Below, one piece after another: positions 47,201-63,844 of a stretch of 64,000 bases of DNA. The DNA lies in NCBI GenBank assembly GCA_902491535.1, contig CABUHS010000010.1:6541-70540 (forward strand), given 5' to 3'. The notes below the pieces were generated by a model. That model made no database searches. It was not told the DNA's origin and saw nothing but the letters and a program-made list of their open reading frames with translations. The first letter of the stretch is position 1, and each line of letters starts with the position of its first letter. The translations under genes and the position numbers were made by a program. This DNA comes from an uncultured Eubacteriales bacterium. GTDB taxonomy: Bacteria > Bacillota > Clostridia > Oscillospirales > CAG-272.

Positions 47201-47369
47201 TTTCTTTATGAAGGGTCAGATATTCATAGCCTAAATCTTTCAGCAGGCGGATAAATTCTTTTTCAAGCTCCGCTTCGCTTTGATAAGCATCCGAACGTTT
47301 TTCCTGCGGCTTGTATTCGGTTACAACAGTGCTTTCGCTGCTTTGGGCAACAATATTGAAATACGGCAT
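44256..47369 (-). CDS. hsdR: Type I restriction enzyme, R subunit
   Basis: 1037 aa with an SF2 helicase core (HTTGSGKT, DECHRSQ) and a type I HsdR N-terminal nuclease region. It is last in the hsd operon. Confidence 0.92.
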   Translation of the reverse strand: MPYFNIVAQSSESTVVTEYKPQEKRSDAYQSEAELEKEFIRLLKDLGYEYLTLHKEKDLIDNLRVQLEKLNNYRFSDDEWNRFFHEVLANSKDGIAEKTRLIQEDHVQVLRRDNGESKNITLIDKKNIHNNTLQVINQYAVSADEGAAHDNRYDVTILVNGLPLIHIELKRRGVPIREAFNQIDRYQRDSFPAASGLYEFVQIFVVSNGTNTKYYSNTTRFNHIKDAYSHKAKKEKTSNSFEFTSFWADANNRIIPDLVDFTKTFFCKHTVLNILTRYCVFTAENMLLVMRPYQIVATERILNRIEIANNYKKYGSVAGGGYIWHTTGSGKTLTSFKTARLASKLDYIDKVLFVVDRKDLDYQTMKEYDRFEKGAANSNSSTAILKKQLEDDNAKIIITTIQKLATFIKKNAGHSVFDKRVVIIFDECHRSQFGDMHLAITKYFKKYHLFGFTGTPIFAVNAGVSKNPTLRTTEQAFGDQLHTYTIVDAINDKNVLPFRVDYIKTMDKEPDIDDKEVWDINREKAFQSPERIRLVTDYILTHFDQKTYRRDKTYTFNVLQNIADVASASGKATIEEIKQKQRVSGFNSIFAVSSVDAAKLYYAEFKRQMAENPQRRLKVALIYSYGANEAETDGLLDEENPEDTSSLDATSRDFLDTAIADYNEMFHTNYSTDGDKFQNYYKDVSLRMKNKELDLLIVVNMFLTGFDATTLNTLWVDKNLKMHGLIQAYSRTNRILNSIKTFGNIVCFRNLQKRTDDAISLFGDKKAGGIVLMRGYRDYYFGYEDSDEKYHPGYADMIEELTTKFPLSDERIIGEQKQKEFIVLFGAILRMRNLLTSFDEFAGNEILSERDLQDYLGRYQDLRDEWKNRKPGGEKEDITDDIVFEIELIKQIEINIDYILMLVKKYHDSHCDDKEVLITIRKAVDASPELRSKKALIENFIAGINEVSDVMIEWRSYVAEEKERQLVTIIKEENLKEEETRKFIDVAFREGSVKTSGTAIDKLMPPMSRFGGGNRAEKKQSVIQKLQAFFERFFGIG

Positions 47370-47372
47370 TGA

Positions 47373-48005
47373 TTAAGCCCCCTTTACAATAGCGATAACG
47401 GCAATAATAATTGAAACAAGAGAAGCAATAGAAGCAAACAGACCGAAAAGATAATTGCGATTATAAAACCTGTCGACCTCTATACTTGCCATTCGGAACA
47501 AACGAGACAAAATAAAAGCAATGAAACCATATAAAATTAAAAATATGTTTTGATACCACGGCAATTGAATCATGTTTATCATTATAAATTGTGTAGGTAC
47601 AACTGCAATAAATAATATAGAAAGAATCAATAAACACCATTTCATTAGCCGAAAGAATAATGAAATGAATGATTTTAACAGTGCTAAAGAAGCTCTATCT
47701 CCCTTTATATCTTTTTTGGGCAAGAACAATATTTTTATGAATACCTTTATCTCATTAAAAAACTTTTTGATTTTGCTCGTATGCTCCTTGTATCCTATTT
47801 TATCACGCCATTCTGCAAGAGTAGCTTTGCGTTGCTCTTCCTCTTTTTGCACTTTTATTTCTTCAGCCTCTACAATAGCGCAAGCAATGATGTGCTGTAT
47901 TTCTTCCGCACTCATATTTTCCGGCAGATTCATATTGACCGATTGCAAAGGTTTTGAAGCAGTATTTTGTTTTGCTTTTTTCTTGTTTTTGCCTTTTCCC
48001 ATCAA
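47373..48005 (-). CDS. Unknown membrane protein embedded between hsdS and hsdR
   Basis: 210 aa with a Lys/Glu-rich N-terminal 75 aa, then 3-4 hydrophobic helices. A 4-nt ATGA overlap joins it to hsdS, and a 3-nt gap separates it from hsdR. Confidence 0.6.
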   Translation of the reverse strand: MMGKGKNKKKAKQNTASKPLQSVNMNLPENMSAEEIQHIIACAIVEAEEIKVQKEEEQRKATLAEWRDKIGYKEHTSKIKKFFNEIKVFIKILFLPKKDIKGDRASLALLKSFISLFFRLMKWCLLILSILFIAVVPTQFIMINMIQLPWYQNIFLILYGFIAFILSRLFRMASIEVDRFYNRNYLFGLFASIASLVSIIIAVIAIVKGA

Positions 48006-49180
48006 CTTGTTTTCTCCTTAAAAGTCAATAGCTTGTTTCTGTAATATTCATATTGTTTTTGCCTTGCTTCGATTTCGGCGGGTATACCAATTTTGAGATC
48101 AGTGCAAATCGCCTCAAAATTATCAAGGACATTAACAAGGCGTTCCTGTACATCTAATGGCGGAATTGATATAAATATCCTACCTATGTCATCTTTGTTG
48201 ATTTTTGTTGGAGTTGCATTCCAAAGTATGCGCTTTGCCAGTTCTGATCTGCCGATACCGCTTTCTAAGTAATGCTTTAAATATTTACTGCTTAAAATAC
48301 TATGGTTAGGGCGTAACAAAGCAAGCGAAACATAATACGCCAAATCATTGTCATTTTCCACAATTGCACATTTACCAATAACACCTGCCGTAATCCTTGT
48401 CATAAATAAATCACCAGTATGTGGTTTTATTTTGAACTTTGCAAACGCCTCTGTGGAAATGAATTTTTTTGTAGCATAAAGATTGTCTATATCTTCAACA
48501 CTTACAAAAGGTACGCCGTTTTCAGTATATTCTGGAGTCTGATGCGTTCCGTCATACACCTCGCATACCGCTCCAAGTGTTACCTTTTCTACAGGCATAT
48601 TTTGTTCAAGCAATGTATCTCTATAATACTCATACTGTTTTTTTCTTGCCGTAAGCTCTGCCGTAAGCTCTGCCGTAAGCTCTGTGAAATTGTCCAATAT
48701 ACGGACAATTTCACGCTGTACAGGCAGCGGTGGAACAGGAATTATAAAATCCTCTGTAATTGATAAAGATATTTGTGGTAACGATCCCATTCCAGAAGCC
48801 GCAGTTCGGAAGTATTCCATATTATTCTTTAATACATAATAAAGATATTTAACCGAGGTTATTTCATCGGAAGTATACGCCCACATCTCATTTTTAAAAG
48901 TAAAGGATTTATCATAAAACACAGCATCAATCACACCACGAGACTGAACTAAAACTGCAGGAACTCTTGTTATATTTGCATTTGAGATATCTTTTTCGAC
49001 AGCATTAATAACTGTCTTTCCTCCTGCAAACACCCGAATTTCTCCATTAGGATTCTCTATTTGCTTCATTTTGGCGGCTGTTATGGGTGTACCCTTGAGC
49101 CTTTTATACACTTCTTTGATTTTTTTATATTCCACGCCGTTCGGACAAAATTCCTGCAACAATTTTTCAAGGTTGCTCAT
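48002..49180 (-). CDS. hsdS: Type I restriction enzyme, S (specificity) subunit, IC-like with a TAEL repeat spacer
   Basis: It has two target-recognition halves separated by the conserved FTELTAELTAELTARKKQYEYY, and the C-terminus repeats ...ARQKQYEYYRNKLL. The start at 49180 (MSNLEKLL) follows a GGAG RBS; the longest ORF would start at 49246. Confidence 0.9.
   Translation of the reverse strand: MSNLEKLLQEFCPNGVEYKKIKEVYKRLKGTPITAAKMKQIENPNGEIRVFAGGKTVINAVEKDISNANITRVPAVLVQSRGVIDAVFYDKSFTFKNEMWAYTSDEITSVKYLYYVLKNNMEYFRTAASGMGSLPQISLSITEDFIIPVPPLPVQREIVRILDNFTELTAELTAELTARKKQYEYYRDTLLEQNMPVEKVTLGAVCEVYDGTHQTPEYTENGVPFVSVEDIDNLYATKKFISTEAFAKFKIKPHTGDLFMTRITAGVIGKCAIVENDNDLAYYVSLALLRPNHSILSSKYLKHYLESGIGRSELAKRILWNATPTKINKDDIGRIFISIPPLDVQERLVNVLDNFEAICTDLKIGIPAEIEARQKQYEYYRNKLLTFKEKTS
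48648..48683 (-). repeat. Three tandem 12-nt repeats inside hsdS encoding (TAEL)n
   Basis: gccgtaagctct occurs three times on the plus strand (48648, 48660, 48672). Confidence 0.9.
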
Positions 49181-50081
49181 GACCTTCTCCTTTTTCAGTA
49201 ACTTCCGGAATAGTGATGTTATATAACGATTCCATATTACTAACACACATCGGATATATAATATAGTCCCACGGCAACAATTTTATCAGATATGGTATGT
49301 TTTCTGTCCGAATGACCTCATACCTCTCTTGATTAATAAAAATCACATACTTTATTTCGTCTCTGAATTGATAAACATATTCCAAAAAATTTTTATCCCT
49401 ACTGAGCCGATACTCTTTAAATTCTTCTTGTTCCCGCATATCACCGTGTGACATACCGTCTATCCAGTCGTGATAAACATTTTCGCACATTGCAAGAGCA
49501 AATTCTGAATATTCGATCATAAATATACCGATTTCTTTTGAACCGGTATATTGTTTGCAACTCTCCAAATGATGTTTCCAGTTGCTTTTTAATGACTTAA
49601 CTAAAAACTCATAAGTATGTACTGGATTTGTATGTGCCCACGATTTTGAACGCACCTCATCAAAGCTCGGAGTTTCATTCCACTCTTGCATAATCTTTTC
49701 TGTTTCTGACTCTACTTTTGATATAAATATACTTTCTTCCTTTTTGTGAACAGAGCCTTTTCTGTTGGTTTGAGACGAGGTTATCTGAAAATGTTCTATA
49801 AATCCATTGTCAAAAACAAAATCAGGAAACTTGCTTAAATTAGAATTAGCTTTAGCTATTCGCAAAATATTTTCAAATTCTTTCCGATCGCGCTCCAAAA
49901 GACCGAAATATGATTTACGGCAATCTGAATTAACAAAATAAGTTCTTTCATTTTTGAACTCGTCATCTGACACATCTAAATAAGTTTTATGTGTAAATGG
50001 ATTCTTCATAGGTTGACCGTTTTTGCAGAATATTGCTTCTTTAAGAATATTCAGACACTTTAATTCTTGATCACCACGCAT
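49167..50081 (-). CDS. Unknown protein embedded between hsdM and hsdS
   Basis: 304 aa with no motif I can assign, no TM segment and no P-loop. A 3-nt gap follows hsdM, and it overlaps the hsdS start by 14 nt. Confidence 0.6.
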   Translation of the reverse strand: MRGDQELKCLNILKEAIFCKNGQPMKNPFTHKTYLDVSDDEFKNERTYFVNSDCRKSYFGLLERDRKEFENILRIAKANSNLSKFPDFVFDNGFIEHFQITSSQTNRKGSVHKKEESIFISKVESETEKIMQEWNETPSFDEVRSKSWAHTNPVHTYEFLVKSLKSNWKHHLESCKQYTGSKEIGIFMIEYSEFALAMCENVYHDWIDGMSHGDMREQEEFKEYRLSRDKNFLEYVYQFRDEIKYVIFINQERYEVIRTENIPYLIKLLPWDYIIYPMCVSNMESLYNITIPEVTEKGEGHEQP

Positions 50082-50084
50082 AAT

Positions 50085-51677
50085 TTACCCCTCAATCTCC
50101 TTAATAATCCTATCAATCTCGTCCCGTAACACTTGTTCCCGTGCTACGATTTCAGCAATTTCCGCATTCAGTTTCACAATATCGATTTTCTCACGGGTAT
50201 CCTCTGCCTCTACATAGGTGGAAACCGAAAGGTTATAGGCGTTCTGCTCGTTGCCTACCTCATCGTTTGGCACAAGACGGCTGAAATACTGCTCGTCCTT
50301 TCTTTCCGCGGCGGCAGTAACGATACGCTGAATGTTCGCTTCGGAAAGTCGGTTATTTTTCGTCACCTTTACAAATTCCCGTGAAGCGTCTATAAACAGA
50401 ATGGAATTATCCGTTTTGTTCTTTTTCAAAAGCATAATATCAACAGATATGGTGACATTGAGGAAAAGATTTGACGGCAGTTGAATGATAGCGTCCACAT
50501 AGTTGTTATCCACAAGGTATTTGCGGATTTTCTGCTCTGCGCCGCCGCGGTACATGATGCCTGGGAAACAGACGATCGCCGCCGCTCCGTTGTTAGCAAG
50601 CCATGAAAGGCTATGCATAATAAACGCCATATCGCCTTTGGACGCAGGCGCAAGCACCCCGGCGGGAGAAAATCGAATATCGTTTATTAACAGCGAATTT
50701 TTATCCCCCTCCCACGGAACAGAGAACGGCGGATTGGAAACGATCAGCTCAAAAGGCTGGTCGTCCCAGTGCTGTGGGCTGAGCAGCGTATCTTCACGCA
50801 CAATGCTGAATTTATCGAAATCAATGTTATGTAAAAACATATTGATACGGCAAAGGTTATAGGTAGTCAGGTCGATCTCCTGCCCGAAAAATCCCTGTTC
50901 AATATTTTCTTTACCCAAAACCTTTTCAACCTTCAACAGAAGCGAACCCGAACCGCAGGCAGGGTCATATACCTTGTTGATTCTTGTCTTTCCGATTGTG
51001 CCGAGTCGGGCAAGCAGTTCGGAGACATCCGCAGGAGTAAAATACTGGCCGCCCTTTTTGCCTGCGTTGGCGGCATACATACCCATCAGATATTCGTATG
51101 CGTCGCCGAACAGATCGGGGTTGATACCGTCCGCCTGAAACAACGGCATTTTTTCTACGCCGTTCAAAAGCTCTGCAAGCACCTTGTTTCTCTTGGCTAC
51201 TGTTTCTCCGATGGATTTGCTGTTTACATCGAAATCGTCAAACAGTCCGGCAAAATCATTTTCCGCTTCACCGCTGGCGGCGCTGCTCTCAATATGGTTA
51301 AAAACGCGTTCTAAGGTTTCGTTTAGGTTTTCGTCCTTATCCGCACGGGCACGTACATTGCAGAAAAGCTCGCTCGGCAAGATGAAAAATCCCTTTTCCT
51401 GCACCAGTCCCTCGCGGGCAGATTCTGCCTCCTCATCGGACATCTTTGCATAATCAAAATCGGGGTTGGGTTCTCCTCTTGCAATAGCAGCGGCTCGCTC
51501 ACCTTTGTTGATATAGGCGGCAAAATTTTCGGAAATATAGCGGTAAAACATTGTACCTAAAACATAGGACTTGAAATCCCACTCGGACACATGCCCCGCG
51601 TGAACAAGGTCGGTAGCAATTTTATATATCGTGCGGAACAGCTCGTCCCGCTCCTGATCTTTCTTTATGTCAGCCAT
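50085..51677 (-). CDS. hsdM: Type I restriction enzyme, M subunit (N6-adenine DNA methyltransferase)
   Basis: 530 aa with SAM motif VYDPACGSGSLL and catalytic motif IVSNPPFS, plus an HsdM N-terminal domain. Confidence 0.93.
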   Translation of the reverse strand: MADIKKDQERDELFRTIYKIATDLVHAGHVSEWDFKSYVLGTMFYRYISENFAAYINKGERAAAIARGEPNPDFDYAKMSDEEAESAREGLVQEKGFFILPSELFCNVRARADKDENLNETLERVFNHIESSAASGEAENDFAGLFDDFDVNSKSIGETVAKRNKVLAELLNGVEKMPLFQADGINPDLFGDAYEYLMGMYAANAGKKGGQYFTPADVSELLARLGTIGKTRINKVYDPACGSGSLLLKVEKVLGKENIEQGFFGQEIDLTTYNLCRINMFLHNIDFDKFSIVREDTLLSPQHWDDQPFELIVSNPPFSVPWEGDKNSLLINDIRFSPAGVLAPASKGDMAFIMHSLSWLANNGAAAIVCFPGIMYRGGAEQKIRKYLVDNNYVDAIIQLPSNLFLNVTISVDIMLLKKNKTDNSILFIDASREFVKVTKNNRLSEANIQRIVTAAAERKDEQYFSRLVPNDEVGNEQNAYNLSVSTYVEAEDTREKIDIVKLNAEIAEIVAREQVLRDEIDRIIKEIEG

Positions 51678-51682
51678 TGATA

Positions 51683-51904
51683 TTACTCCTTATCTTTAAG
51701 CCATTCAGACTCTATTTCTTCAAAAGGGAAACCCCTGCTTTCGCAATAAGCCTTGATTTTCTTCATAGCCGTAATATTCGGCTTGGTTTTTCCGTTTTCC
51801 CAGCGATTTATCGTACCCACAGATACATTCAGCAGTTTAGCAAACTCTTCTTGTGATAGAAGCGCCCTTTTACGCATATTCCGTATCAACTCACCTAATG
51901 ACAT
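51683..51904 (-). CDS. Small XRE-family HTH protein, first gene of the R-M operon (controller-like)
   Basis: 73 aa with HTH LSQEEFAKLLNVSVGTINRWENG. It ends 5 nt before the hsdM start. Confidence 0.8.
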   Translation of the reverse strand: MSLGELIRNMRKRALLSQEEFAKLLNVSVGTINRWENGKTKPNITAMKKIKAYCESRGFPFEEIESEWLKDKE

Positions 51905-51926
51905 TGTTCTGCCGTTCTCCTTTCAA

Positions 51927-51976
51927 AAGGTTGCTACTATTATAACATAAACCTATCATTTTTTCAAGGTTGCTGC
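51927..51976 (-). promoter_or_regulatory. Promoter of the HTH-hsd operon flanked by a direct-repeat operator candidate
   Basis: On the minus strand, TTGAAA (51962-51967), a 17-nt spacer, then TATAAT (51939-51944). The repeat aaggttgct(a/g)c occurs at 51927-51937 and 51966-51976, bracketing the promoter. Confidence 0.55.
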
Positions 51977-52470
51977 TCATTCTTATATTTACTTGCATTT
52001 TATCGGTACGCCTGCAATATTGTAGGCGTACCTTTTGATATATACAAAGGTGGAATCTGTAATAAAGTAAGGAGGAATTTCAATGCTCAGAAAAGCAATA
52101 TCAGAAAGTGATTGAGCAAAACAGCATTCGGCTCACGAGGCTGTGTGTGACCGAAAGAGTGCAGATTTAGATGGAAAAAGAATGTACAAGAAGAATCTGC
52201 AAGCAGCCAACCGTCAGCGATAGACGGACATTTATCGTACCTCCACCGTACAGGAGCTTTGTACGGCAATGTTTCCGGGATTTCCGTTGTAAGAACAAAT
52301 CCCTGCCGAACGCTTACTATACAAGCGGCAGATTTATGATCTGTATCGGCATTGCGCAGTCAGCTTTGTCTGACGCTCTGTTATTCAGAGTTGCGCTGGG
52401 GCAGTCTTCACTAATGGGAAGATGAGTCCATAGTCCTAACCTCTTTTACAAATGAATAGTAGTTCTCTGC

Positions 52471-53060
52471 GATGAAATGAATGACCAGCTTTTCGGAATG
52501 ATACCATCTTTTCGATATGATAATGATTATCTTTCCGATATGATGTATGACCTTCCTTTTGTCGCCGTTTCTATCGGGCGACAGCAAGATAGAAACGGCG
52601 GCGAGGAATCGTCCGAGAGGCCGTGCGGCAAGGCATTCAGGGATTACAAGAAATGAAAACGGGAGAAACGGCAGGTAAAGTCGCTGAAACTGCCAATGGG
52701 TAAACTATGCCTTGCCGCGTTATGATATGCCGTTTCATGTGATAAATGAATCTATACTTCGGAATGATAATTTAATATGACATACTTTTCGGAAGTCACT
52801 CAGGATTTATCATAGATTTGTATTTGCACGCCTGCGGCGCGTTCCGGCTGTTTGATGTTCAATGATAAGCATGCAAAGAGAACCCGTCATTAAACATCAA
52901 ACTGTCGGCTGAAAATATCCCTCTTAAAGATTCGTATCAGATTGCAAACCCTTCATTTCGATATGATTTATGACCGTCCTTTCAGAATGATGCGTTTTCA
53001 AAATACATACCGTTTTGGAAGAATATGATTTCATTTCGGAATGATCGCAAAAATATGACC
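52471..53060 (+). repeat. Iteron-like field: at least 8 same-orientation copies of TTCG(G/A)(A/T)ATGAT, often followed by TATGAC(C)
   Basis: Copies lie at 52492, 52511, 52533, 52758, 52957, 52981 and 53035, with variants at 52788 and 53015. TATGACC-like half sites lie at 52481, 52546, 52775, 52969 and 53053. No credible ORF is present. Confidence 0.75.
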
Positions 53061-53072
53061 TTCAATTTCAAA

Positions 53073-53116
53073 GGCGGCGACAGGAGATTTTTTTCTGTCG
53101 CCGCCGAATTTTTTTG
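53073..53116 (+). terminator. Intrinsic terminator-like hairpin upstream of the tyrosine recombinase gene
   Basis: 11-bp GC-rich stem ggcggcgacag / ctgtcgccgcc followed by gaattttttt. Confidence 0.6.
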
Positions 53117-53212
53117 CTTTGCAAAAATTCGCTCTATTTTTTACTTGCCAAAATAGATACTCCTTTTCATATTCTTTTTGCCTGAATCAAAAAGGCAAAA
53201 AATTATGAAGGA

Positions 53213-54280
53213 GTGATGCCAATGAGAGAAATCTCAAAAAAGATGGACATTGTAACCGACATTTTGGACACCGCCTTCGACAAGCCGTGGGAAAAGTATT
53301 CTGCTGAAGAATACAAAATCCAGCTTGAAGAAACAAAGTCCAAAGTCCGGGAACTAACGCCCGAACAAGAGCTGAAATTGATGAATAAGCGTATGAATCT
53401 GCGAATACAGGTGACCGCCATTTACAAAAAGGACAGACATGGCAGCCAAGCAACCCGCAAGCGATACTATCAAGCCGCCTGCTATGCCTGTGATTATATT
53501 GCCGGCACCTGTAATTTACAGAAATTCGCAAACTTTCATCCAAAGCATTTCCGTGAAGTTGCAGAGTATTGGAAAACAACAAAAGAACTAAATACGGTTT
53601 ATACCGAGCTTACAGGTTTGCGCAAATATTGTGAGTATGCAGGGTGTAAATACAAGATGCCTGAAAACAAGGAACTGAATCTGCCGAAGCGCGAACCGAC
53701 AAAATATAACCGCGCATGGCTACCTCACGAAATTCAGAAAGCAAAAGAACTTGCTGAAACAATGGGTAGATTCGATGTCCGGGATGCTATTGAACTCGGA
53801 GAAAAATTGGGTCTTCGGATTATCGAAGCCTGTCAGTTCAAGGTCGGAGATGTGAAATCCGCACTCGGTTGGGGCGGTTTGGAAATCAAGAGTAAGGGCG
53901 GTCAGATACGGTTTGTCCCGATTGAAACTGAAGAACAGAAGGAGCTTCTGCAACGCCTGTATCGTGAAGCAAAAGAAAAAGGGTTAATGGACGACGATTT
54001 TATTCTGAGCAAGACAATCAAATACGGTCCGCGTATGGAAAAGAAGTCTATCGAAAACTGGATATACAATCATCGCAAAAAGTTTACAGACCCAAATCGA
54101 GAGCAAACGATAAAGCGCGGTAAAAAGCCGCGGGTTAAAAACATTGTCTTCCACGGGCTTCGCCACAGCTACACACAGGAACGGGGCAAACATTTGCAAG
54201 GCGATCCTAGAAGACAGCAGAAGCTCAGCGAGGGCTTGGGTCATCATCGGTTGTCGGTGACGAATATTTACAAAGAATAA
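53213..54280 (+). CDS. Tyrosine recombinase / phage-integrase family protein
   Basis: About 352-355 aa. It has C-terminal catalytic motifs HGLRHSY and LGHHRLSVTNIY (the Tyr nucleophile sits near the end). The likely start is ATG 53222, 8 nt after AAGGAG. Confidence 0.8.
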   Translation: MMPMREISKKMDIVTDILDTAFDKPWEKYSAEEYKIQLEETKSKVRELTPEQELKLMNKRMNLRIQVTAIYKKDRHGSQATRKRYYQAACYACDYIAGTCNLQKFANFHPKHFREVAEYWKTTKELNTVYTELTGLRKYCEYAGCKYKMPENKELNLPKREPTKYNRAWLPHEIQKAKELAETMGRFDVRDAIELGEKLGLRIIEACQFKVGDVKSALGWGGLEIKSKGGQIRFVPIETEEQKELLQRLYREAKEKGLMDDDFILSKTIKYGPRMEKKSIENWIYNHRKKFTDPNREQTIKRGKKPRVKNIVFHGLRHSYTQERGKHLQGDPRRQQKLSEGLGHHRLSVTNIYKE

Positions 54281-54583: not shown

Positions 54584-54642
54584 TGGTGCGGGTAAAAGGA
54601 CTTGAACCTTCACGAAGTTGCCCCCACTAGAACCTGAATCTA
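54584..54642 (-). other. 3' fragment (about 59 nt) of a tRNA-Leu(CAG)-like gene; probable att-site remnant, not a functional tRNA
   Basis: The minus strand reads TAGATTCAGGTTCTAGTGGGGGCAACTTCGTGAAGGTTCAAGTCCTTTTACCCGCACCA. This gives an anticodon loop, a long variable arm, a T-arm GGTTCAAGTCC, the acceptor 3' strand and an encoded CCA. No matching 5' acceptor strand or D-arm follows. Confidence 0.7.
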
Positions 54643-55107: not shown

Positions 55108-55136
55108 TTGACATAGTTTGGCTAATATGTTAAAAT
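55108..55136 (+). promoter_or_regulatory. Strong sigma-A promoter with an extended -10 at the head of the island
   Basis: TTGACA (55108-55113), a 17-nt spacer ending in TGT, then TAAAAT (55131-55136). Confidence 0.55.
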
Positions 55137-55716
55137 ACAAACAAGATAAAGTCAGATTAATAAATCTAACGATATCTTATATATAATACCCAGTTTAATA
55201 TTTCTCAGGAATTACCTTTTAATAAGAACAGGACATCCCCCTAACGTATCACTTGATTTTTTCAGTATAAGGTATGAGGCTTGTTATGAAAAACTGTTTT
55301 TCCAAGGCGTGTATATCCCTTAATGAAATAACGGTATCAGACTGCAAAAATGATGCAATAAATGCTATTGCTATGTCCAAATTTAATATGTGCGTAAACA
55401 GCGCATTGCTTGCTTGATAGAGGCTTGCTTTGCGCTGTTTTGTCATATAATACTCTATCATGTGCTTGATTATATTTTTATAACAAAACATTAATTATAC
55501 TAGAAATAATTGGAGTGTTTTATGATATTGTTGATTATTATGAAGAAAAGGATTAATATGTGGGGTTAGAAATTCAAAAAAATCAATACTGAATATTCAA
55601 TATTCTAATCCAATTTAATATACAATTTTTTTAGTACGATGTCATAGGTATTGAATAGCATAAGCGTATTAAACAGAAACATTAAGAAGTATAAAACTTG
55701 CGGAGGAAATAAAAAA

Positions 55717-57117
55717 ATGTCAAGGAACTTAAAAATGTCTAAGTATAACTTTATCTGTTTAGATAAAGAAGGAGATTTAATTTTATATAATTTTCTAAAT
55801 GGAATATCAAGTTTAACTAAGATAAAAAAATCTGATATTGATAGTTTCACTAATGGATTTTTGACGAATTCTGAGAAACTTTATGCGGCTTGTAATGAAT
55901 ACAAAGAAATGGCTAATACATTGCTTAAGTTAGGTATATTAGTAGATGATGACACAGACGAAAGTGTTTTATATGATGCAAAACAGTATAGCGAAATTTA
56001 TGATACAAAGCTATACCTTACTATTTTCCCAACAGGAAAGTGTAATTTTAGATGCCCATACTGTTTCGAAACCTCACAAGATTTTAGTCGAGATACAATG
56101 ACGAGTGATTCGCAGGATGCAATACTTAAATTTGTTCAAAAGACAATATCTAATCATAGAATGCTTCATGTATCTTGGTTCGGTGGTGAACCGTTAGTAG
56201 CATCCGAAGTAGTTGAAAATTTATCCGATAAATTTATCCAAATTTGCAATGTAAGACATATACCCTATTCTGCTGATATGGTAACAAACGGCTTTTTACT
56301 TGATTCTAATATGTTTGATACACTTTATAAATTACAGGTATATGATTATATGATTACTATTGATGGATTTAAAAAACAGCATGATAAAAGGAGATTTACA
56401 TATGATGGTAAGGGTTCATATGATACAATTATGGATAACTTGTTAAAGATACGAAATAATAAGCAGTATAAATTTGCTAATATAATGATTCGTGTCAACA
56501 TGTCAACTGGATTTTTGGAAATGCTTGACGAATTTGTGAATTTTCTTGGTTCATCATTTGCCGATGATCCGCGATTCAAATTCATGTTTGTGCCTGTAGT
56601 CAAGTTTTCTAGTTCTCATTTTTCAAATGAAATTATCTATTCTAATCATAAAGAATTGTACATGCGTCTTTCTAAAAATGATGTTTATACGAATAAACTA
56701 TATCCTAATATGCTAAAATTAACTTCAATACTTCCGCAGCAAAAGTGCCCGGCATGCTTAAAAAATTCATATGTTATTACTTCCGATTTGAGTGTGTATA
56801 AATGTAATGCTCACTATGATTTTGATATCAATAAAATCGGGCGAGTAAATTTAAATGGTGATCTATTAATTGATGAAACTCTTCATAGAAGGTGGTACTT
56901 AATGAAAAAGTCTATTCAGAGAATACCCGAATCTTGTAATGACTGTTTCTACTCTCCTTGTTGTCTAAATATCGATTCTGGTTGTCCAGTCAGCTATCTT
57001 AAAACGAATCCAGATGTAACATTATGTCCGTTGAAAGATGAAAATAAAAAAAATAATATTGTTGAAACAATTTTATACGCTGCTGATATATATCCCTGTA
57101 CGACACTTGCATTATAA
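55717..57117 (+). CDS. Radical SAM / SPASM-domain peptide maturase
   Basis: The start at 55717 follows a GGAGGA RBS. It has a CxxxCxxC cluster (GKCNFRCPYCFE) and a roughly 100-aa N-terminal extension (possible RiPP recognition element). The C-terminal Cys-rich SPASM region is CPACLKN...YKCNAH...CNDCFYSPCCLNIDSGCP. Confidence 0.88.
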   Translation: MSRNLKMSKYNFICLDKEGDLILYNFLNGISSLTKIKKSDIDSFTNGFLTNSEKLYAACNEYKEMANTLLKLGILVDDDTDESVLYDAKQYSEIYDTKLYLTIFPTGKCNFRCPYCFETSQDFSRDTMTSDSQDAILKFVQKTISNHRMLHVSWFGGEPLVASEVVENLSDKFIQICNVRHIPYSADMVTNGFLLDSNMFDTLYKLQVYDYMITIDGFKKQHDKRRFTYDGKGSYDTIMDNLLKIRNNKQYKFANIMIRVNMSTGFLEMLDEFVNFLGSSFADDPRFKFMFVPVVKFSSSHFSNEIIYSNHKELYMRLSKNDVYTNKLYPNMLKLTSILPQQKCPACLKNSYVITSDLSVYKCNAHYDFDINKIGRVNLNGDLLIDETLHRRWYLMKKSIQRIPESCNDCFYSPCCLNIDSGCPVSYLKTNPDVTLCPLKDENKKNNIVETILYAADIYPCTTLAL

Positions 57118-57284
57118 TTTTATGTATATATAATTATAATCATAAAATCAAACTACTTTTCAATTTAAATATTGTAACTTTAAAATGGTATTATATCGTA
57201 AATTTCAAAATTTTGTTACAAAAGATTTATATAAATATTAGTATAATTGTTTTTAAAATTTGATTTAGAGGAGGTAAATAGTAT

Positions 57285-57542
57285 ATGATATTTACATATC
57301 AAATGCTTGTCAAAATATTAGTTGATAAATTAGGCTTTGTTCTTCTTGATGGTAGACAAGATGATTTTGCTATTAATGAATACGTTACTGATTCTGTAAC
57401 GTTTATCAAATTAATTATTGCTATAGAAGAGACTATTGGAAAAGAATTAACAGATGACTTTCTTGATTACGAAATGTTGAGTTCCGCAAAAGGCTTTGCG
57501 GCAAAAATAGATTGTTTCATTGATTCTTCTAAGGATCAATAA
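57285..57542 (+). CDS. Acyl carrier protein-related small protein
   Basis: 85 aa. TDSVTFIKLIIAIEETIGKELTDDFL matches the ACP helix II region with a DS(L/V) phosphopantetheine-site-like serine. A good RBS (GAGGAGG) precedes it. Confidence 0.7.
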   Translation: MIFTYQMLVKILVDKLGFVLLDGRQDDFAINEYVTDSVTFIKLIIAIEETIGKELTDDFLDYEMLSSAKGFAAKIDCFIDSSKDQ

Positions 57543-57605
57543 ATACTATTAAATACTGGGATTAATTAATTTTGAGCGTTACTATAGTTTTTATAAAAGA
57601 ACTAA

Positions 57606-57620
57606 AAACGCGACGCGTTT
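57606..57620. promoter_or_regulatory. Perfect 15-bp palindrome AAACGCG-A-CGCGTTT just upstream of the precursor RBS (operator candidate)
   Basis: It is a GC-rich dyad in an otherwise AT-rich stretch, and it ends 4 nt before AAGGAGG. Confidence 0.4.
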
Positions 57621-57640
57621 AAGAGAAGGAGGTGAATACT

Positions 57641-57775
57641 TTGAAAAAGATCTTAAAAAAGAAGATAAAATTTTCATCGAATGCTATTCGTTATTTTTCC
57701 GGTGAACTTGTTCAATATTGGAAACCAGAGAATTTTCCAGATGGTACTTCTGGTACTTGTCATTATACGTGTTAA
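57641..57775 (+). CDS. Candidate RiPP precursor peptide (44 aa), not in the ORF track
   Basis: An AAGGAGGTG RBS lies 7 nt before a TTG start. The translation is MKKILKKKIKFSSNAIRYFSGELVQYWKPENFPDGTSGTCHYTC, with a basic leader-like N-terminus and a Gly/Ser/Thr/Cys C-terminus. It lies between the ACP-like and protease genes. Confidence 0.6.
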   Translation: MKKILKKKIKFSSNAIRYFSGELVQYWKPENFPDGTSGTCHYTC

Positions 57776-58111
57776 CTATAATAATACCGTTATAAATTAT
57801 AGTAATATTGATAGTTATTCACTATGTTAAACGAAGTAATGAATGATTAGAAATGTTATAGCAGTTTTTAATCATCGCGTTATTCTCCTAATTTTAGAAG
57901 ATTGATTTTTTTGCTATGTGTATGTAGAAACTATGGTAACGCTAAGTTTTTACATATTTTGATTATTTCTTCACTGAAATAAAATTTATATATAGTATGC
58001 AGCAATAGTATATTGTTTCGTATGGGTTTGTTTTTGATAAGCGTTATTCACCCAAAAGAATAATATAATCTGCATTAACAAGTACTTTGAGAAATGAGGT
58101 GAAATAACATT

Positions 58112-59902
58112 ATGTATTATGATGTAGTAATTATTGATAGTGGAATTAATGTGAGCAATGATTTTAACATGAATGGAATTTGTATAGAAAAAAATAGTGA
58201 AGGTTTTTTGATTGATAATAATTTGAAGGATGAATTCGGACATGGAACTATTATTTACTCTATAATAAGTAAATGTATAGATCCAAGCAAAATTTACATT
58301 ATTAAACTACCTGCCAATCGCGTAGAGCTTGACGATTCTTGTTTAATTGCTGCATTGGAATATATAAAAAAGAATATTAAATGTAAAATTATTAACATTA
58401 GTTTAGGTGTAAAAAGTGGTGAAAATATAGATAAATTATATAATATATGTGCCGAAATATCAGCAATGGGGATCGTAATAGTTTCTGCTTTTGATAATGA
58501 AGGGTGTCATTCATATCCAGCTGCGTTTGATTGTGTAATTGGAGTTGATAATAAATATGATTTTAAAATTTCTACAGAATTTGATTTTGTAGAAAATAGT
58601 CCCGTAAATATCTTAGCAAAAGGAGATATACAACGTCTAACCGTTCAAGATGGCAAAATACTATTAGTCGGCGGAGCGAGTATATCGTGCGCACATATAA
58701 CTTCTATTTTAACTAAAAAAATAATTGGTAATTTAAATCTTCAAGGCGCGTTGTCATATTTAAAGTCAAAATCTAGGCATATTTATTCTTCTCATAAATT
58801 AGAGGGCGTTATAGAAACACCTCTTTTTAAGATTACAAATGCAGCGGTCTTTCCGTTTACAAAAGAGGCGCATGCATTTGTTAGATTTGCTGATATGTTG
58901 AAATTTAATATACAGTGCTATTATGATATTAAGCGTTCTGGAAAAGTAGGAAGAAAGATATCTAGTTATTATGAAGGTGTAAAGACTGAAGAATGTATTA
59001 AAGATATTAATAAAATTGATTTTTCGAATATAGACACTATTATACTTGGACACTTGGATGAATTAAATGCAGTTTCTAAACGAGATTACAAGATGGAATT
59101 AATAAGAAATGCTATTGTGAATGGTGTTAACGTTTATTCATTTGATCCTCTGGATTCGTATAGTGAGATACTAAACAATTCAGGAATAAAATATTATTAT
59201 CCAAGTGTAACAAATAACAATATACCGAAAAATACATTTGGAAAGTTATATAAAATTTCCAAACCAGTTGTTGGTATTTTTGGGACATCGTCACGACAGG
59301 GAAAATTTTCTCTGCAATTAACATTAAAGAGAGAATTGGAATCACATGGTTACGATGTAGGAACAGTTGGCACAGAGCCGCATTCGCCATTGTTCGATTT
59401 TGATGTTGTTTTTCCAATGGGATATAATTCTACTGTACGCTTGTATAATAACGAAATTGTATTATATTTGAATAATGAAATTAACAAATTATGTTTGAAT
59501 GGTAAGGAAATTATATTAGCTTCTACACAAGCACAAATTATACCTTATTATTGTAATAATTTGCTTGAATATCCGTCAATGCAATACCATTTTGCATTAG
59601 GAATAAATCCGGATGCAATAGTAATGTGCATTAACTATCATGATGAAATACAATATATTAAAAACTCTATATATGCGCTGATGGGATTAACGGATGCGAA
59701 TGTAATTGCATTTGTAATATATCCGATAACATACTCTAGTGATTGGAATGGAATATATGGTAACACAAAACATAAAATAACATATGAAGAATACAAACAG
59801 AAAGCAGACTCTTTGCTAAAAGAATTTCAAATTCCGGTTTATATGTTAGGTGATAAAGAACACATAAATGAATTGTATCAAACAATAATTAATTTCTTTT
59901 AA
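58112..59902 (+). CDS. Fusion protein: N-terminal subtilisin-like (S8) serine peptidase domain plus a roughly 370-aa C-terminal domain of unknown function (DUF1611-like by motif)
   Basis: The Asp-His-Ser triad order is VVIIDSGIN, GHGTIIYS, GGASISCAHITS. The C-terminal GIFGTSSRQGKFSLQLTLKRELESHGYDVGTVGTEPHS resembles the Gly-rich GTD..GK..T loop of DUF1611-type proteins (from memory). Confidence 0.7.
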   Translation: MYYDVVIIDSGINVSNDFNMNGICIEKNSEGFLIDNNLKDEFGHGTIIYSIISKCIDPSKIYIIKLPANRVELDDSCLIAALEYIKKNIKCKIINISLGVKSGENIDKLYNICAEISAMGIVIVSAFDNEGCHSYPAAFDCVIGVDNKYDFKISTEFDFVENSPVNILAKGDIQRLTVQDGKILLVGGASISCAHITSILTKKIIGNLNLQGALSYLKSKSRHIYSSHKLEGVIETPLFKITNAAVFPFTKEAHAFVRFADMLKFNIQCYYDIKRSGKVGRKISSYYEGVKTEECIKDINKIDFSNIDTIILGHLDELNAVSKRDYKMELIRNAIVNGVNVYSFDPLDSYSEILNNSGIKYYYPSVTNNNIPKNTFGKLYKISKPVVGIFGTSSRQGKFSLQLTLKRELESHGYDVGTVGTEPHSPLFDFDVVFPMGYNSTVRLYNNEIVLYLNNEINKLCLNGKEIILASTQAQIIPYYCNNLLEYPSMQYHFALGINPDAIVMCINYHDEIQYIKNSIYALMGLTDANVIAFVIYPITYSSDWNGIYGNTKHKITYEEYKQKADSLLKEFQIPVYMLGDKEHINELYQTIINFF

Positions 59903-59947
59903 ATATTTGCTGATAATAAGGAATGGTAAAAAGGAGATTATATTAAT

Positions 59948-60352
59948 ATGGAAGAAAAAATTAAACTTTTGTCAATAGGAAAAAAAAGGGCAAAAAAGAC
60001 GAATTTAGAGGGATGGGCGAAAATTGTAGAAAGATACGCTCCGGATATGTATGATTTGTTGTATGGAGCTGGGGAGAAGGATGCATTAAAAAAAGTTCGC
60101 GAACTCAGACCTGAGATAATATTGATATTGCCAAGTATATTGCAAAATGACTTAAAAGATGGTTTGAGTTTATTAAAAAAAATAAAGGAACTGCATCCTG
60201 AAGCAGCTGTATTTGTATGTATGGGTATGGTGGATGATGAGCAGGATGCGTTTGACGAATATAAAGCTTGTGGTGCATATAAATGCTATTCAGCACCTGT
60301 AAGTATGGATGCATTATTTCATGATATGTATGTAGCATTAAATTTGGAATGA
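59948..60352 (+). CDS. Stand-alone receiver-like (CheY-fold) protein with a degenerate phospho-acceptor site
   Basis: 134 aa. A REC-like pattern (KVRELRPEIILILPS...GLSLLKKIKELHPEAAVFVCMG...GAYKCYSAPVSMDAL) is present. However, the acidic pocket, the acceptor Asp and the conserved Lys appear replaced. Confidence 0.5.
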   Translation: MEEKIKLLSIGKKRAKKTNLEGWAKIVERYAPDMYDLLYGAGEKDALKKVRELRPEIILILPSILQNDLKDGLSLLKKIKELHPEAAVFVCMGMVDDEQDAFDEYKACGAYKCYSAPVSMDALFHDMYVALNLE

Positions 60353-60378
60353 TTAAACATGGGAGGACAATAGAAACC

Positions 60379-62164
60379 ATGAAAAGAGTAAAAAACATAC
60401 AGTTAGACAATTTGTTACTTTCCTTTAAAGAAATATGGAATTATGATAAGAGACTTATATTTCTTTTACTTGCTGATGTTTTTATAAGTGCGATACGACC
60501 GTTTCCCAACATTATTCTTTCTGGACGTATTGTTGATAGTATCGCTTATGGAAAGAATTTTTTGTCGGTTATCTTTTATATGGTTTTGATGTTTGGTATA
60601 AATTACTTTATAACAGCCATAGGTACTTTTTTGTCAAGATATAGAGAATATTTATTTATTAAGTTAAGTAACAAATTGGATAATGATGTAAATGAAAAAT
60701 GTTGATTTTGAACAGTTTAACGATTCTTCCGTTCAAGATCGTATCATGATGGTTAACCAAGCAATACGTGGAAATAATTTTTTTACTAGCCTTACTATCG
60801 TTTTTTCTACAATTTCTCAATTTGTAACCCTTATTGGAATAGTATATGTAATGACAATTTTAAATATATGGTTGTTAGCTATTGCGTTGATAGTTATTGT
60901 TTTACAGACAATATTGCATTATATGAACCTTAGGTATGATAGAAAGTATATGGAAGATTCTGTGAGCGAACGCAGGAAAATTGCTTATGTATCACAATTA
61001 ATTAAGGATATACAAAGTAAAAAAGATATTGTAATGTTTGGGATGGGTGATTACATATTAAAAAAAATCAAATCTTTTCAACAGACAATGCTAATATTCG
61101 ATAAGCGCCGAATACGGTGGGGTGGATTTATTGAGATGACTACTTATTCTTTAAACGTAGCCTTTCAAATTTTTGCTTATATATTGATTGGAATTAACGC
61201 TTTTAATAAAGATATTTCTATTGGTGATTTTACAATTGGTATTGCTTCTTTGATGAATTTTATGTCTGCATCTTCCTTTGTAACTAATAACATACTTACC
61301 TTTAACGATAATTTTTTTTATATTAGGCAGTATAAATCCTTTAATAAGCTCAGAAGCAAGTTTGATAAATCATCTTCTAATATTACGTTAAACAGCATAG
61401 ATAAAAACAAAATTGAAATAGAGTTTCGCAATGTTTCTTTTCGATATCCTAATAGTACTGCATTCGTATTAAAAAATATAAATTTGACAATAAAGAATAA
61501 TGAACGTCTTGGGATTGTGGGATATAATGGCGCAGGCAAGACAACATTCACTCTTTTGTTAACTCGTATGTACGATCCTACAGAAGGATCGATATATTTG
61601 AATGGCATAGATATTAGAAATATTGATTATAAAGAATACCAAAAGATTATTTCATCGGTTAATCAGGACTTTTCTCTTTTGGCTTTTTCTTTGTTGGAAA
61701 ATATCGCTATTACAGATATAGCATCTCAAGATGAAAGAAAAAAAGTATTGGGACTTTTAAATGATAATGGTTTACAAGAAAGAATGAGGAAGCTTTATAG
61801 AGGACTTGATACGCCGATTACAAAGACGTTGTCTGCATCAGGTGTTGATTTATCAGGGGGAGAACGTCAAAAAATCGCGGTAGTACGCGCACTTTATAAG
61901 GATTCTCCAATTCTGATACTAGATGAGCCTACATCGGCACTTGATCCAGTTGCTGAACACGAAATATTTCAGAAATTTTCAGAAATGTCCGAAGGAAAAA
62001 CAACTCTTCTTATCTCTCATAGAATATATAGCACTCGTTTTTGTGATAAAATTGCAGTTTTTGATAAGGGTGAGATAAAAGAATATGGAACGTTCGAAGA
62101 GCTAATGGGATTGAAAGGCTTATATTATGAGTTCTTTCAACAACAAGCGGAATACTTTAAATAA
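60379..62164 (+). CDS. ABC exporter, fused permease/ATPase; reading frame broken by a 1-nt shift in an A5 run (60695-60699)
   Basis: ORF 60349-60705 carries TM helices 1-2. ORF 60692-62164 carries the rest of the TMD and the NBD, with Walker A GYNGAGKTT, signature LSGGERQ and Walker B ILILDEPTS. The two ORFs are contiguous parts of one exporter. An RBS (GGGAGGA) precedes ATG 60379. Confidence 0.8.
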
Positions 62165-62375
62165 TAATAATTAGAATTTAATTTGTTAATGCAATACTGC
62201 AATATATAAACATATGACCGTCATTGCAAGAAATGAATAGTAAAGAGTAAATATTATTATCAGAATTAAGTTTATAATATTATATTTCAATGAATGGTTT
62301 AAATATTGTGTTGGTTGGTAAATACATTATAAAAATTAATTGCTTTTAAGCGGGCGGAAAGGTGTTATAATACTT

Positions 62376-63401
62376 ATGAATAAGATACTTCCTATTGAAA
62401 TATCTCCAATTATCAAAGCATATGTTAATCACGCATATCCGTTTGGAATTATAGAAGCAAATTTCAGTGAGCAGATTTTATTACGCTTGTTATGTGATAA
62501 ATATGTAAATTGTATATATAGCAAAAATGATAGAAATAAATTTTATATATATGAAGCCGATAGTTGGTTTGAACAATCGGGTGCAATAACGCATCAAAAC
62601 CTTATGTGTAAAGAAAAAGATATAGTATGTGTACGTGAAGCTATTGAGGAAGCACGTCGAAGAATTGTTAAAGGAGAATATGTTTATTCTTCTCCTAATG
62701 AAGGAAAAATATCCGCAATTAGTCAGGGACGAATATATGATTTTGATCACGAATGTTTGATATATGGATTTAATGATGATGAAAGATTTTATCAATCTAT
62801 TGGATATATAAGACCACCAGAATATGTAAATTATTATACCCCATATAAAATTACATATGATGAATATGAAGAAGCCTTGTTAAATGTTCAAATCGGTGTA
62901 GTAGAGTTGTTATTTTACAAAGTAAATAAAGATTTTGTATTACCGAGCATTGATTTGGAAAATGTTTTAATGTTGTTTAGACAATACCTTGACTCTGATA
63001 TTCCAAAGTTTTCAACCAACTATGACTTGCGTGGAATTATTGATGCCGGAGAATTGAAATTTGGTATATCTGCATGGAACGAACTCGCTATGTATATTGA
63101 ATACATTGATGTTGATAAAAAAATTGATATGCGGTATGTCAGAAGTTATATGGAACATAAATATTTAATGAAGAAGCGAATTTTATATATTTTAGAGTAT
63201 TTGAGTATTTTCAATTCATCTATAATCGAAAAGGTTTCTAAAATTTATCGTGAATCGCAAGATATAATGTTGCTTTCGTTAAAATATAATTTTACAGGAA
63301 GTAATATATTATTGAAACGTATTTCCGATAAAATCAAAATAAATAATATGAATGAAGTTGAATACTTATCGAAAGTAATCGATTATATAATCGCTTTTTA
63401 A
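62376..63401 (+). CDS. Hypothetical protein (341 aa), last gene of the cluster
   Basis: It is an AT-rich ORF with no recognisable motif, no TM segment and no signal peptide. The start was chosen at MNKILPIE; the longest ORF starts at 62340 (TTG). Confidence 0.5.
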   Translation: MNKILPIEISPIIKAYVNHAYPFGIIEANFSEQILLRLLCDKYVNCIYSKNDRNKFYIYEADSWFEQSGAITHQNLMCKEKDIVCVREAIEEARRRIVKGEYVYSSPNEGKISAISQGRIYDFDHECLIYGFNDDERFYQSIGYIRPPEYVNYYTPYKITYDEYEEALLNVQIGVVELLFYKVNKDFVLPSIDLENVLMLFRQYLDSDIPKFSTNYDLRGIIDAGELKFGISAWNELAMYIEYIDVDKKIDMRYVRSYMEHKYLMKKRILYILEYLSIFNSSIIEKVSKIYRESQDIMLLSLKYNFTGSNILLKRISDKIKINNMNEVEYLSKVIDYIIAF

Positions 63402-63415
63402 ATGTTTGAATATTT

Positions 63416-63844
63416 TTATAACCCTGTGCAGAGAAAATCCTCGATAATATCGTACATATGAATTGTGTTGATATTAAGGAGGTTACACAGAGCGGTAAGA
63501 TTTTGAACTGCTGTAAAGTTTACGCTTATATCTTCAAAAAATATTCCGTCTCCCTTAATGCCATAGCCGATATACTTGATTCCGTCAAGTGTGTAAGTTT
63601 CGTTATGCACCGAATAAATTTCAGGATTAAGCATATATTCAATCTCAGACAAAGTTGTTCCGTATTTTTCCCACAAAATCATAGCAGTACTCAGTTTGAT
63701 ATCGGATTTTCCGGACTCGATATTTCGTATTTGACGATCGCTGTATTCTATTGATTCAGCAACTTCCTCCTGCGTCAGTCGGTTCAGTGTTCTTAATTTC
63801 TGCATAAGTTTTCCGTAGTCAGCTGACTTTTCATGTTTTTTCAT
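63416..63844 (-). CDS. XRE-family HTH transcriptional regulator
   Basis: 142 aa with HTH LTQEEVAESIEYSDRQIRNIESG and a C-terminal domain of unknown function. It converges on the cluster end. Confidence 0.8.
   Translation of the reverse strand: MKKHEKSADYGKLMQKLRTLNRLTQEEVAESIEYSDRQIRNIESGKSDIKLSTAMILWEKYGTTLSEIEYMLNPEIYSVHNETYTLDGIKYIGYGIKGDGIFFEDISVNFTAVQNLTALCNLLNINTIHMYDIIEDFLCTGL

Follow-up and report, generated by a model that had tools for sequence, protein, structure and literature searches.

The closest described relative of the locus discussed here is the CLI_3235 system, known from Roseburia intestinalis L1-82 and, as SacP23, from Paenibacillus polymyxa. CLI_3235-type clusters encode a radical S-adenosylmethionine (rSAM) enzyme (TIGR04068), proteins of the TIGR04066 and TIGR04069 families, a separate subtilase, and an ATP-binding cassette (ABC) transporter (PMC4573289; PMC10731318). 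The SacP23 product is active against methicillin-resistant Staphylococcus aureus; its mass is 3.4 kDa, where 4.46 kDa was predicted, and the peptide resists Edman degradation at its N-terminus (PMC10731318). The same parts list recurs in a 64,000-nucleotide stretch (positions 6,541 to 70,540 of contig CABUHS010000010.1, assembly GCA_902491535.1) from an uncultured Eubacteriales bacterium of the CAG-272 lineage, referred to below as the window. An operon near its right-hand end encodes an rSAM/SPASM enzyme, a carrier-protein-like protein, a short Cys-containing peptide, a subtilisin-like (S8) protease fused to a DUF1611-like domain, an ABC exporter, and a 341-residue protein with the fold of the ligase CtaG. 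This operon is very probably an uncharacterized cluster for a peptide made by the ribosome and modified after translation (RiPP) of the CLI_3235-related kind.

The TIGR04066 and TIGR04069 families date from about 2011, and the TIGR04065-69 system has apparently been a bioinformatic pattern only for over a decade. No solution to the chemistry of this or of the CLI_3235 system turned up in literature searches. Individual parts of the operon have likenesses elsewhere. During maturation of quinohemoprotein amine dehydrogenase (QHNDH), the QhpD/QhpE/ABC system uses a compact cytoplasmic subtilisin to remove the leader of an rSAM-cross-linked Cys peptide before ABC export. The product of that pathway is an enzyme subunit, whereas a free small peptide is expected here, and we know of no carrier protein, DUF1611-type or CtaG-like component in QHNDH maturation. 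Goadvionins and lipolanthines are ribosomal peptides acylated from a carrier protein, as is proposed here. They are made with fatty acid synthase or polyketide synthase modules and GNAT-type transferases, none of which is present at this locus. CtaG itself, recently described, is a thiotemplated ligase of the papain-like type; it has a Cys11-His128-Asp144 triad and moves acyl groups between carrier proteins. Its fold family is defined as carrier-protein-dependent ligases, with AsbE, BtrH, and MllDE as homologues and AziU2/U3 as a structural relative of unrelated function (PMC12865890).

A reading of the window from its sequence alone, made before the present analysis, had proposed a radical SAM/SPASM RiPP operon with a carrier component. 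Gene content, motifs, and co-conservation all support this proposal. As a whole, the locus is probably an island-borne RiPP operon that combines rSAM cross-linking, carrier-dependent acylation, leader removal by an S8 protease, and ABC export. The carrier-dependent decoration of the peptide, taken as a claim of its own, is a tentative one to which we give somewhat under an even chance, although no other mechanism has better support.

Relation to CLI_3235-type clusters

More than 100 clusters of full-length homologues share 40-74% identity with the 596-residue fusion protein; in total it matches 976 clusters (50% identity, E <= 1e-30), the top 150 of which are all full length. Homologues occur in 202 species-level genomes, mostly Clostridia (Lachnospiraceae, Oscillospiraceae, Roseburia, and Acetatifactor), with Paenibacillus, Tumebacillus, Sutcliffiella, and a few others as additional hosts. 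NCBI labels them only as "DUF1611 domain-containing protein," and no paper on this fusion-type system was found in the literature, which yielded indirect mentions of DgcN only. Genes within 9 kb of the fusion gene were counted at 86 loci. An rSAM gene is present in 69, a carrier gene in 72, an ABC exporter in 77 (often two), and a CtaG-like gene in 48. Dozens of genomes have kept the gene set together, and none of the refuting conditions named in the sequence-only reading that this analysis could examine applies. In loci L005 to L007, a divergent copy of the CtaG-like gene has a genuine phosphopantetheine-binding (PP-binding) neighbor of its own.

The same reading had left undecided whether the locus is a member or a relative of the CLI_3235 class. 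The second part of that claim stands, with the TIGR04066 alignment and the SacP23-like leader described below; the first does not. Judged from sequence, the locus is an uncurated sister of the CLI_3235/TIGR04065-69 system and not a member, because no protein from the window, or from distant members of its family in Roseburia and Paenibacillus, reaches the curated cut-offs. The rSAM enzyme scores 86.4 bits against TIGR04068 (CcpM) in a partial alignment, compared with a cut-off of 500, and TIGR04066 gives 86.5 bits in the window and 89-100 bits in distant members, compared with a cut-off of 200. TIGR04069 (cut-off 70) has no match in the window at E <= 0.01, and the homologue at locus L026 scores 17.8 bits.

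As in CLI_3235 clusters, a subtilase and an ABC exporter occur together. Here, however, the subtilase and the TIGR04066-type protein are fused, whereas they are separate in the known system. The rSAM enzyme is closer to TIGR04463, CefB, and Clo7bot, the peptide cores are often short, and the CtaG/BtrH-fold gene is a frequent extra. The leader of SacP23 (MRKLVKRSTNVGDTIEAFGCGC..., of the form MRKLVKR...IEAF) resembles the M(K/R)KLxKK...(L/A)(Y/F)xxE leaders found here, a comparison made by eye only.

Components of the operon

All open reading frames (ORFs) listed in the sequence-only reading are present at their positions (Table 1), save that the exporter is split. The rSAM/SPASM enzyme carries the marks of a RiPP maturase: a CX3CX2C motif (C109/C113/C116) conserved in all 59 homologues, C-terminal cysteines, and an adjoining Cys-containing precursor with a conserved leader. 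Eight further cysteines (C177, C344, C363, C407, C410, C416, C423, and C437) are conserved in 92-98% of the same homologues and are predicted to be ligands for auxiliary clusters. About 108 residues precede the CX3CX2C motif. Among NCBIfam models, TIGR04463 scores best (194.6 bits; cut-off 525), with CefB at 162.9, Clo7bot at 159.9, and PapB at 104.8 bits; the enzyme lies below every curated cut-off.

The precursor peptide consists of a Lys-rich leader, MKKILKKKIKFSSNAIRYFSGE, followed by LVQYWKPENFPDGTSGTCHYTC with a C-terminal CxxxC core. An alternative GTG start at 57632 falls inside its ribosome-binding site. The leader MKKxLKK...RYFSGE and the terminal CxxxC are common to the precursors of L005, L008, and L009, the cores of which vary. 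The wider family follows the pattern M(K/R)K-L-x-K-K...(L/A)(Y/F)xxE and then a short Cys-containing core; behind the YxxE-type motif this core has a median length of 13.5 residues (range 5-39), with a median of two cysteines (range 1-5). This leader pattern was found in 44 of 4731 small ORFs on the same strand, distributed over 36 loci, compared with 5 of 6911 on the opposite strand, an approximately 13-fold enrichment. Leaders of the precursor type thus occur in at least 36 related loci and across genera. Together with the ribosome-binding site, this conservation and strand-specific enrichment bear out the earlier suggestion that the unannotated 44-codon ORF is a peptide gene. NCBIfam models, including TIGR04065, match neither the window peptide (E <= 0.01) nor three family peptides (E <= 1). 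A perfect palindrome, AAACGCGACGCGTTT, at 57606-57620 lies between the carrier and peptide genes, directly upstream of the ribosome-binding site of the latter; it could form a processing or attenuation hairpin.

Table 1. Features of the operon and its surroundings in the window, with precursor peptides of three related loci.
Feature	Coordinates	Strand	Basis or details
HTH_3 + tetratricopeptide repeat protein, 380 aa	39200-40342	-	RRNPP-type peptide-sensing architecture
Serine recombinase	42465-44042		Left-hand block
HsdR	44256-47369		Left-hand block
HsdS	48002-49246		Left-hand block
HsdM	50085-51677		Left-hand block
Tyrosine integrase	53213-54280		Left-hand block
tRNA-Leu(CAG) 3' fragment, 57 nt, distal att direct repeat of island	54584-54640	-	Repeat match to intact L001 tRNA
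Promoter-like site	55108-55136	+	TTGACA, 17-nt spacer, TG-n-TAAAAT (TG-extended); 11/12 positions plus TG
Radical SAM/SPASM peptide maturase, 466 aa	55717-57117	+	PF04055 47.6 bits; upstream GGAGG site
Carrier-protein-like protein, 85 aa	57285-57542	+	PF00550 19.6 bits; presumed phosphopantetheine site Ser37
Precursor peptide, 44 aa	57641-57775	+	MKKILKKKIKFSSNAIRYFSGELVQYWKPENFPDGTSGTCHYTC; TTG start, AGGAGG 9 nt upstream
S8 subtilisin-like domain, aa 1 to ~230 of 596-aa protein	58112-58800	+	QhpE 88.6 bits vs cut-off 165
DUF1611/TIGR04066-like domain, aa ~239-596	58826-59902	+	PF07755 29.2 bits, above cut-off 25
Pseudo-receiver, 134 aa	59948-60352	+	PF00072 18.1 bits vs 30.2 cut-off
ABC exporter, permease + ATPase	60379-62164	+	Split ORFs 60349-60705, 60692-62164
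CtaG/BtrH-fold protein, 341 aa	62376-63401	+	AlphaFold2 model and Foldseek; Pfam on relatives
XRE-type helix-turn-helix regulator, 142 aa, convergent	63416-63844	-	PF01381 35.8 bits; weak DUF6514 match
Precursor of locus L005			...RYFSGENPVSTPRGTHPDYGQLTCTVGCAI
Precursor of locus L008			...RYFSFESGSTYVSISTSTINTVNVCEEWCPQ
Precursor of locus L009			...HYFSGENSTSTPQGTHPWYGQLTCTVGCSS

The S8 domain of the fusion protein is compact, begins at its catalytic Asp9, and has neither a signal peptide nor a propeptide. Subtilisin profiles match it to E 1e-14, the subtilisin fold is matched as well, and the catalytic triad (Asp9, His44, and Ser190) and the oxyanion Asn129 are invariant in 65 homologues. 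Its best family match is QhpE (88.6-116 bits, under the cut-off), and it is predicted to be a cytoplasmic leader peptidase. Although the sequence-only reading regarded the S8 domain as an extra, it is a standard part of such systems, because canonical CLI_3235 clusters carry a separate subtilase.

TIGR04066 is covered from one end to the other (profile positions 3-357 of 361) by the C-terminal 350 residues, which, in addition to passing the PF07755 threshold, have the DUF1611/DgcN fold. A confident AlphaFold2 model (pLDDT 88.2, pTM 0.89) matches 2g0t, 2obn, and 7xrj ("N-acetyltransferase DgcN") in Foldseek searches, with E-values of 1e-11 to 1e-8 and target-normalized TM-scores of 0.63-0.73. 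Only 7xrj, among the DUF1611 fold matches, has a function named in its PDB title. When the C-terminal domain was searched by itself as a profile against the PDB, it matched 2g0t marginally (E 0.094) and yielded no DgcN alignment for active-site comparison. A P-loop, GTSSxQGKF, and about 20 polar residues are invariant in the 65 homologues; the G-x5-GK spacing is presumably that of the DUF1611 consensus. DgcN, which uses acetyl-CoA, shares the fold over about 390 columns, whereas the domain here is joined to a protease and encoded in a RiPP operon that also has a carrier gene. In some relatives, the DUF1611-like part stands alone (~360-436 residues, without S8), as at L012 (9995-11305) and in the proteins P0083, P0086, and P0088, and L032 has a stand-alone 357-residue TIGR04066-like gene besides the fusion. 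Since such stand-alone forms exist, the fusion must have been made or broken more than once.

The carrier-like protein has weak NCBIfam matches to acyl carrier protein (ACP) and AsbD models, and its relatives reach at most 34 bits on the ACP models, under the cut-offs of those models. The attachment-site motif (D/E)S is nonetheless conserved: in 68 homologues, Ser37 and Glu48 are invariant and Asp36 is found in 93%. The carrier gene usually lies directly after the rSAM gene and often overlaps it. A second, genuine PP-binding gene occurs at L005 (6475-7882), L024 (11804-13105), and L050 (12718-12963), and in the first two of these it adjoins the CtaG/BtrH-like gene. At L055, a 373-residue ORF (11740-12861) combines a BtrH-like signature motif with a weak C-terminal PP-binding match and may be a ligase-carrier fusion like MllDE. 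This fusion is only suggestive, because hhalign matched the ORF to the 341-residue family weakly (probability 1.25%), though with the signature motif aligned.

The 341-residue protein, previously taken for an ORFan, belongs to a conserved family: 15 homologues are found in databases, and an iterated profile detects members in at least 48 of the 86 loci. In its AlphaFold2 model (pLDDT 79.9), an alpha/beta domain at the N-terminus is followed by a C-terminal domain of five helices, in keeping with the papain-like and helical parts of the CtaG fold as far as the prediction goes. The only significant Foldseek matches in the PDB are CtaG (E 3.7e-7, TM 0.50-0.57), AziU3/U2, and CcbD, including the complex of CcbD with a peptidyl carrier protein (PCP). 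Sequence searches of the PDB with the family profiles (A4 and A6) returned nothing meaningful, and the family has no sequence-level match to any solved structure. It was therefore placed by fold search and by Pfam scans of relatives, which found BtrH_N in 9 (best E 9.4e-9) and Peptidase_C39_2 in 6 of 36 members. Like CtaG, BtrH, AsbE, and CcbD, the protein combines a two-part fold with co-occurrence of a carrier; AsbE, a CtaG homologue, acts in the petrobactin pathway with the carrier AsbD, the family that the carrier here weakly matches. Unlike CtaG-type ligases, which have a Cys nucleophile and operate in non-ribosomal or aminoglycoside pathways, most members here lack the Cys and the setting is a ribosomal peptide pathway. 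The Cys-His-Asp triad of CtaG (C11/H128/D144) is incomplete in the window protein, which lacks the Cys, while His125, in the motif HxxLIYGYD, is 92% conserved in the family. The 341-residue protein is a second carrier-protein-linked component of the operon, which strengthens what the sequence-only reading inferred from the carrier protein.

The exporter matches MsbA, HlyB, and bacteriocin ABC models. It has no C39 peptidase domain, because its alignments to the bacteriocin models begin at profile position 278. The sequence-only reading gave it as one ORF, whereas 8 bp (TAAATATG) are missing after 60703 in the window, as judged by alignment with L001 and L004. These are two other assemblies of the same island, 99.35 and 99.89% identical to the window, respectively; in both the exporter is intact (597 residues in L001). 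Two independent metagenome contigs of this island, L002 and L003, both terminate exactly at 60703. That their ends coincide with the deletion suggests either that natural populations hold two alleles or that an artifact arose during assembly at this point.

Proposed carrier-dependent decoration and its alternatives

In the proposed pathway, the rSAM enzyme would bind the leader and install at least one thioether-type cross-link from a core Cys, and the S8 domain would cut the leader off in the cytoplasm. The holo-carrier would bear an acyl or aminoacyl unit. By analogy with DgcN, the DUF1611-like domain would handle this thioester-bound unit, either loading the carrier or transferring the unit. 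In the manner of CtaG, BtrH, AsbE, and CcbD, the CtaG/BtrH-like protein would dock the carrier and hand the unit on to a peptide amine. Because the leader peptidase is fused to the DgcN-fold domain, the most economical acceptor would be the new N-terminus exposed by the peptidase. The ABC transporter would then export the product. Links to carrier proteins come from the DgcN fold (7xrj), the CtaG fold family, and the CcbD-PCP complex among the structural matches. The Edman block of SacP23 fits N-terminal modification but does not prove it. In its broadest form, the proposal is that a family spanning gut Clostridia and Paenibacillus makes ribosomal/thiotemplated hybrids, in which DgcN-fold and Cys-less CtaG-fold enzymes attach a carrier-borne unit after cross-linking and leader removal; this is possible but less likely than not, and we put it forward as a speculation.

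Several observations weigh against such a pathway. The cluster has no obvious acyl-activating enzyme or phosphopantetheinyl transferase. The likeness to DgcN exists at the level of fold only (9-16% identity), and the carrier falls just under the PF00550 gathering threshold of 20.8 bits. Overlap of the carrier and rSAM genes would also fit a carrier that serves as a partner of the rSAM enzyme. About 40% of loci yielded no CtaG-like gene. Moreover, the CtaG-like protein has no conserved Cys at the N-terminus of the relevant helix (H19-A20 in the window, from structures not superposed residue by residue), a Cys near the position of Ala20 being seen in only about 4 of 36 relatives. The Cys-less protein may do something other than acyl transfer, by analogy with AziU3/U2, or be a scaffold. 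Finally, the frameshifted exporter means that this copy of the cluster may be inactive.

One alternative is a plain sactipeptide or ranthipeptide cluster without acyl chemistry, in which cross-linking by the rSAM enzyme, leader cleavage by the S8 domain, and ABC export suffice and the carrier, the DUF1611-like domain, and the 341-residue protein are non-catalytic chaperones, scaffolds, or immunity factors. Translation of the carrier gene is commonly coupled to that of the rSAM gene, as with RiPP recognition element (RRE) or PqqD-like partners, and the missing Cys nucleophile and acyl-activating enzyme would need no explanation; the SacP23 authors, for their part, surmised that the TIGR04066 protein confers immunity (PMC10731318). 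Such an explanation is unlikely, however, in view of the conservation of the carrier. Attachment of phosphopantetheine is favored because the retention of Ser37 and Asp36 is hard to explain otherwise. The DUF1611-like domain likewise keeps its P-loop and invariant polar residues, the segment ahead of CX3CX2C is long enough for a putative peptide-binding domain of the rSAM enzyme's own, and three separate carrier-linked folds co-occur. In a variant that retains the carrier thioester, the DUF1611-like domain would be an ATP-using enzyme, a kinase or ligase, by which the peptide or a small acid is activated; the carrier would take up that unit or the peptide itself, with cyclization or C-terminal modification as the outcome instead of N-acylation. 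Its P-loop is Walker-A-like, 2g0t is titled "putative nucleotide binding protein," and no separate adenylating enzyme is present. On the other hand, the only function-titled DUF1611 match is an N-acetyltransferase, and sequence cannot distinguish ATP from coenzyme A binding; this variant is considered very unlikely.

Least probable by far is that the rSAM enzyme acts on something other than a peptide, for example as an anaerobic sulfatase maturase, and that the small ORF arose by chance. The enzyme does match the sulfatase maturase model TIGR03942, but weakly: its 72.6 bits are far under the cut-off of 349 and below the scores of six RiPP maturase models, TIGR04463 among them. Moreover, no sulfatase gene lies nearby, and a chance ORF would not be expected to have a consensus ribosome-binding site and a strand-enriched leader shared across genera. 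The sulfatase maturase candidate was rejected on model scores, and the assignment of the enzyme to the RiPP type, made in the sequence-only reading, holds.

Island setting and implications

The block that contains the operon was described earlier as far richer in AT than its flanks and as beginning at a broken tRNA-Leu, and both descriptions are correct. Its GC content is 0.255-0.318 at 55-64 kb, compared with 0.41-0.49 in the flank at 50-54.5 kb. Nowhere in the window did ARAGORN call a tRNA, and scanning with Rfam by E-value gave nothing at 54.3-55.8 kb; having been missed by both, the tRNA fragment was identified by comparison with the intact tRNA-Leu(CAG) of L001 (18254-18340, minus strand), an assembly that reaches beyond the window end. 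The fragment corresponds to the 3' 57 nt of that gene, identical over the first 30 nt and 86% identical over all 57; the window holds a single copy of the 30-mer, and shuffles hold none. A 377-residue tyrosine integrase in L001 (17076-18209) directly adjoins the intact tRNA. Given the tRNA direct repeat and this integrase, the AT-rich block is, on the evidence of its sequence, the cargo of an approximately 11.8-kb mobile island integrated into tRNA-Leu(CAG). The remainder of the island, past base 64000, comprises a 155-residue ORF, a dUTPase, the integrase, and the tRNA. L001 also has 45-nt copies of the 5' part of tRNA-Leu at 18300-18344 and 18465-18509, which are 93% identical; the second lies 165 nt from the intact gene and could be what an earlier integration left behind, or else another tRNA gene.

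A second mobile or defense block (42465-54280) lies directly to the left of the tRNA fragment. In addition to a serine recombinase, it contains a type I restriction-modification system that adjoins a helix-turn-helix (HTH) gene and a tyrosine integrase. This left-hand integrase was rejected as the island's own, since it lies outside the repeat and the integrase that belongs to the island is found beyond the window, next to the intact tRNA. To the left of 50092, the window and L001 cease to be homologous, and the hsdS region is thus strain-variable, which could reflect a variable specificity subunit.

The consensus extended -10 promoter reported ahead of the operon exists and is the top-scoring promoter-like site at 54.6-64 kb. 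It is not statistically special, and was rejected as such, because the number of such sites in the region equals the shuffle expectation (68 compared with 65.3 +/- 9); on its own it is no evidence. Between this site and the rSAM start lie about 580 nt (55137-55716), perhaps a regulatory element, perhaps a long leader. They contain an antisense 80-residue ORF (55249-55491, minus strand), called by two gene callers and without a family match. The pseudo-receiver lacks the equivalents of the DD pair (D12/D13), Asp57, and Lys109 in an alignment with CheY, and at best has a receiver-like fold. It is an accessory confined to the close clade, to which all 11 of the loci that have it (out of 86) belong. 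The peptide-sensing-type regulator of Table 1 is encoded about 15 kb from the cluster, and L005 has a 634-residue HTH protein divergent from its cluster. Because the cores are short, the cluster products might be signals instead of antibiotics.

Should the proposed pathway prove true, it would represent a new RiPP tailoring logic, with DgcN-fold and CtaG/BtrH-fold enzymes not previously tied to RiPPs. It would also assign a function to the TIGR04066 and TIGR04069 proteins, for which no published function was found in the literature, and extend the recently defined class of CtaG ligases into RiPP biosynthesis. The locus belongs to a sister family that is much larger than TIGR04065-69 and is not curated by NCBIfam, and it brings three carrier-linked components (the carrier, the DgcN-fold domain, and the CtaG/BtrH-fold protein) together within a radical SAM RiPP core. 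Since Clostridia of the gut and rumen make up most of the producers, the products may play a part in microbiome competition or signaling.

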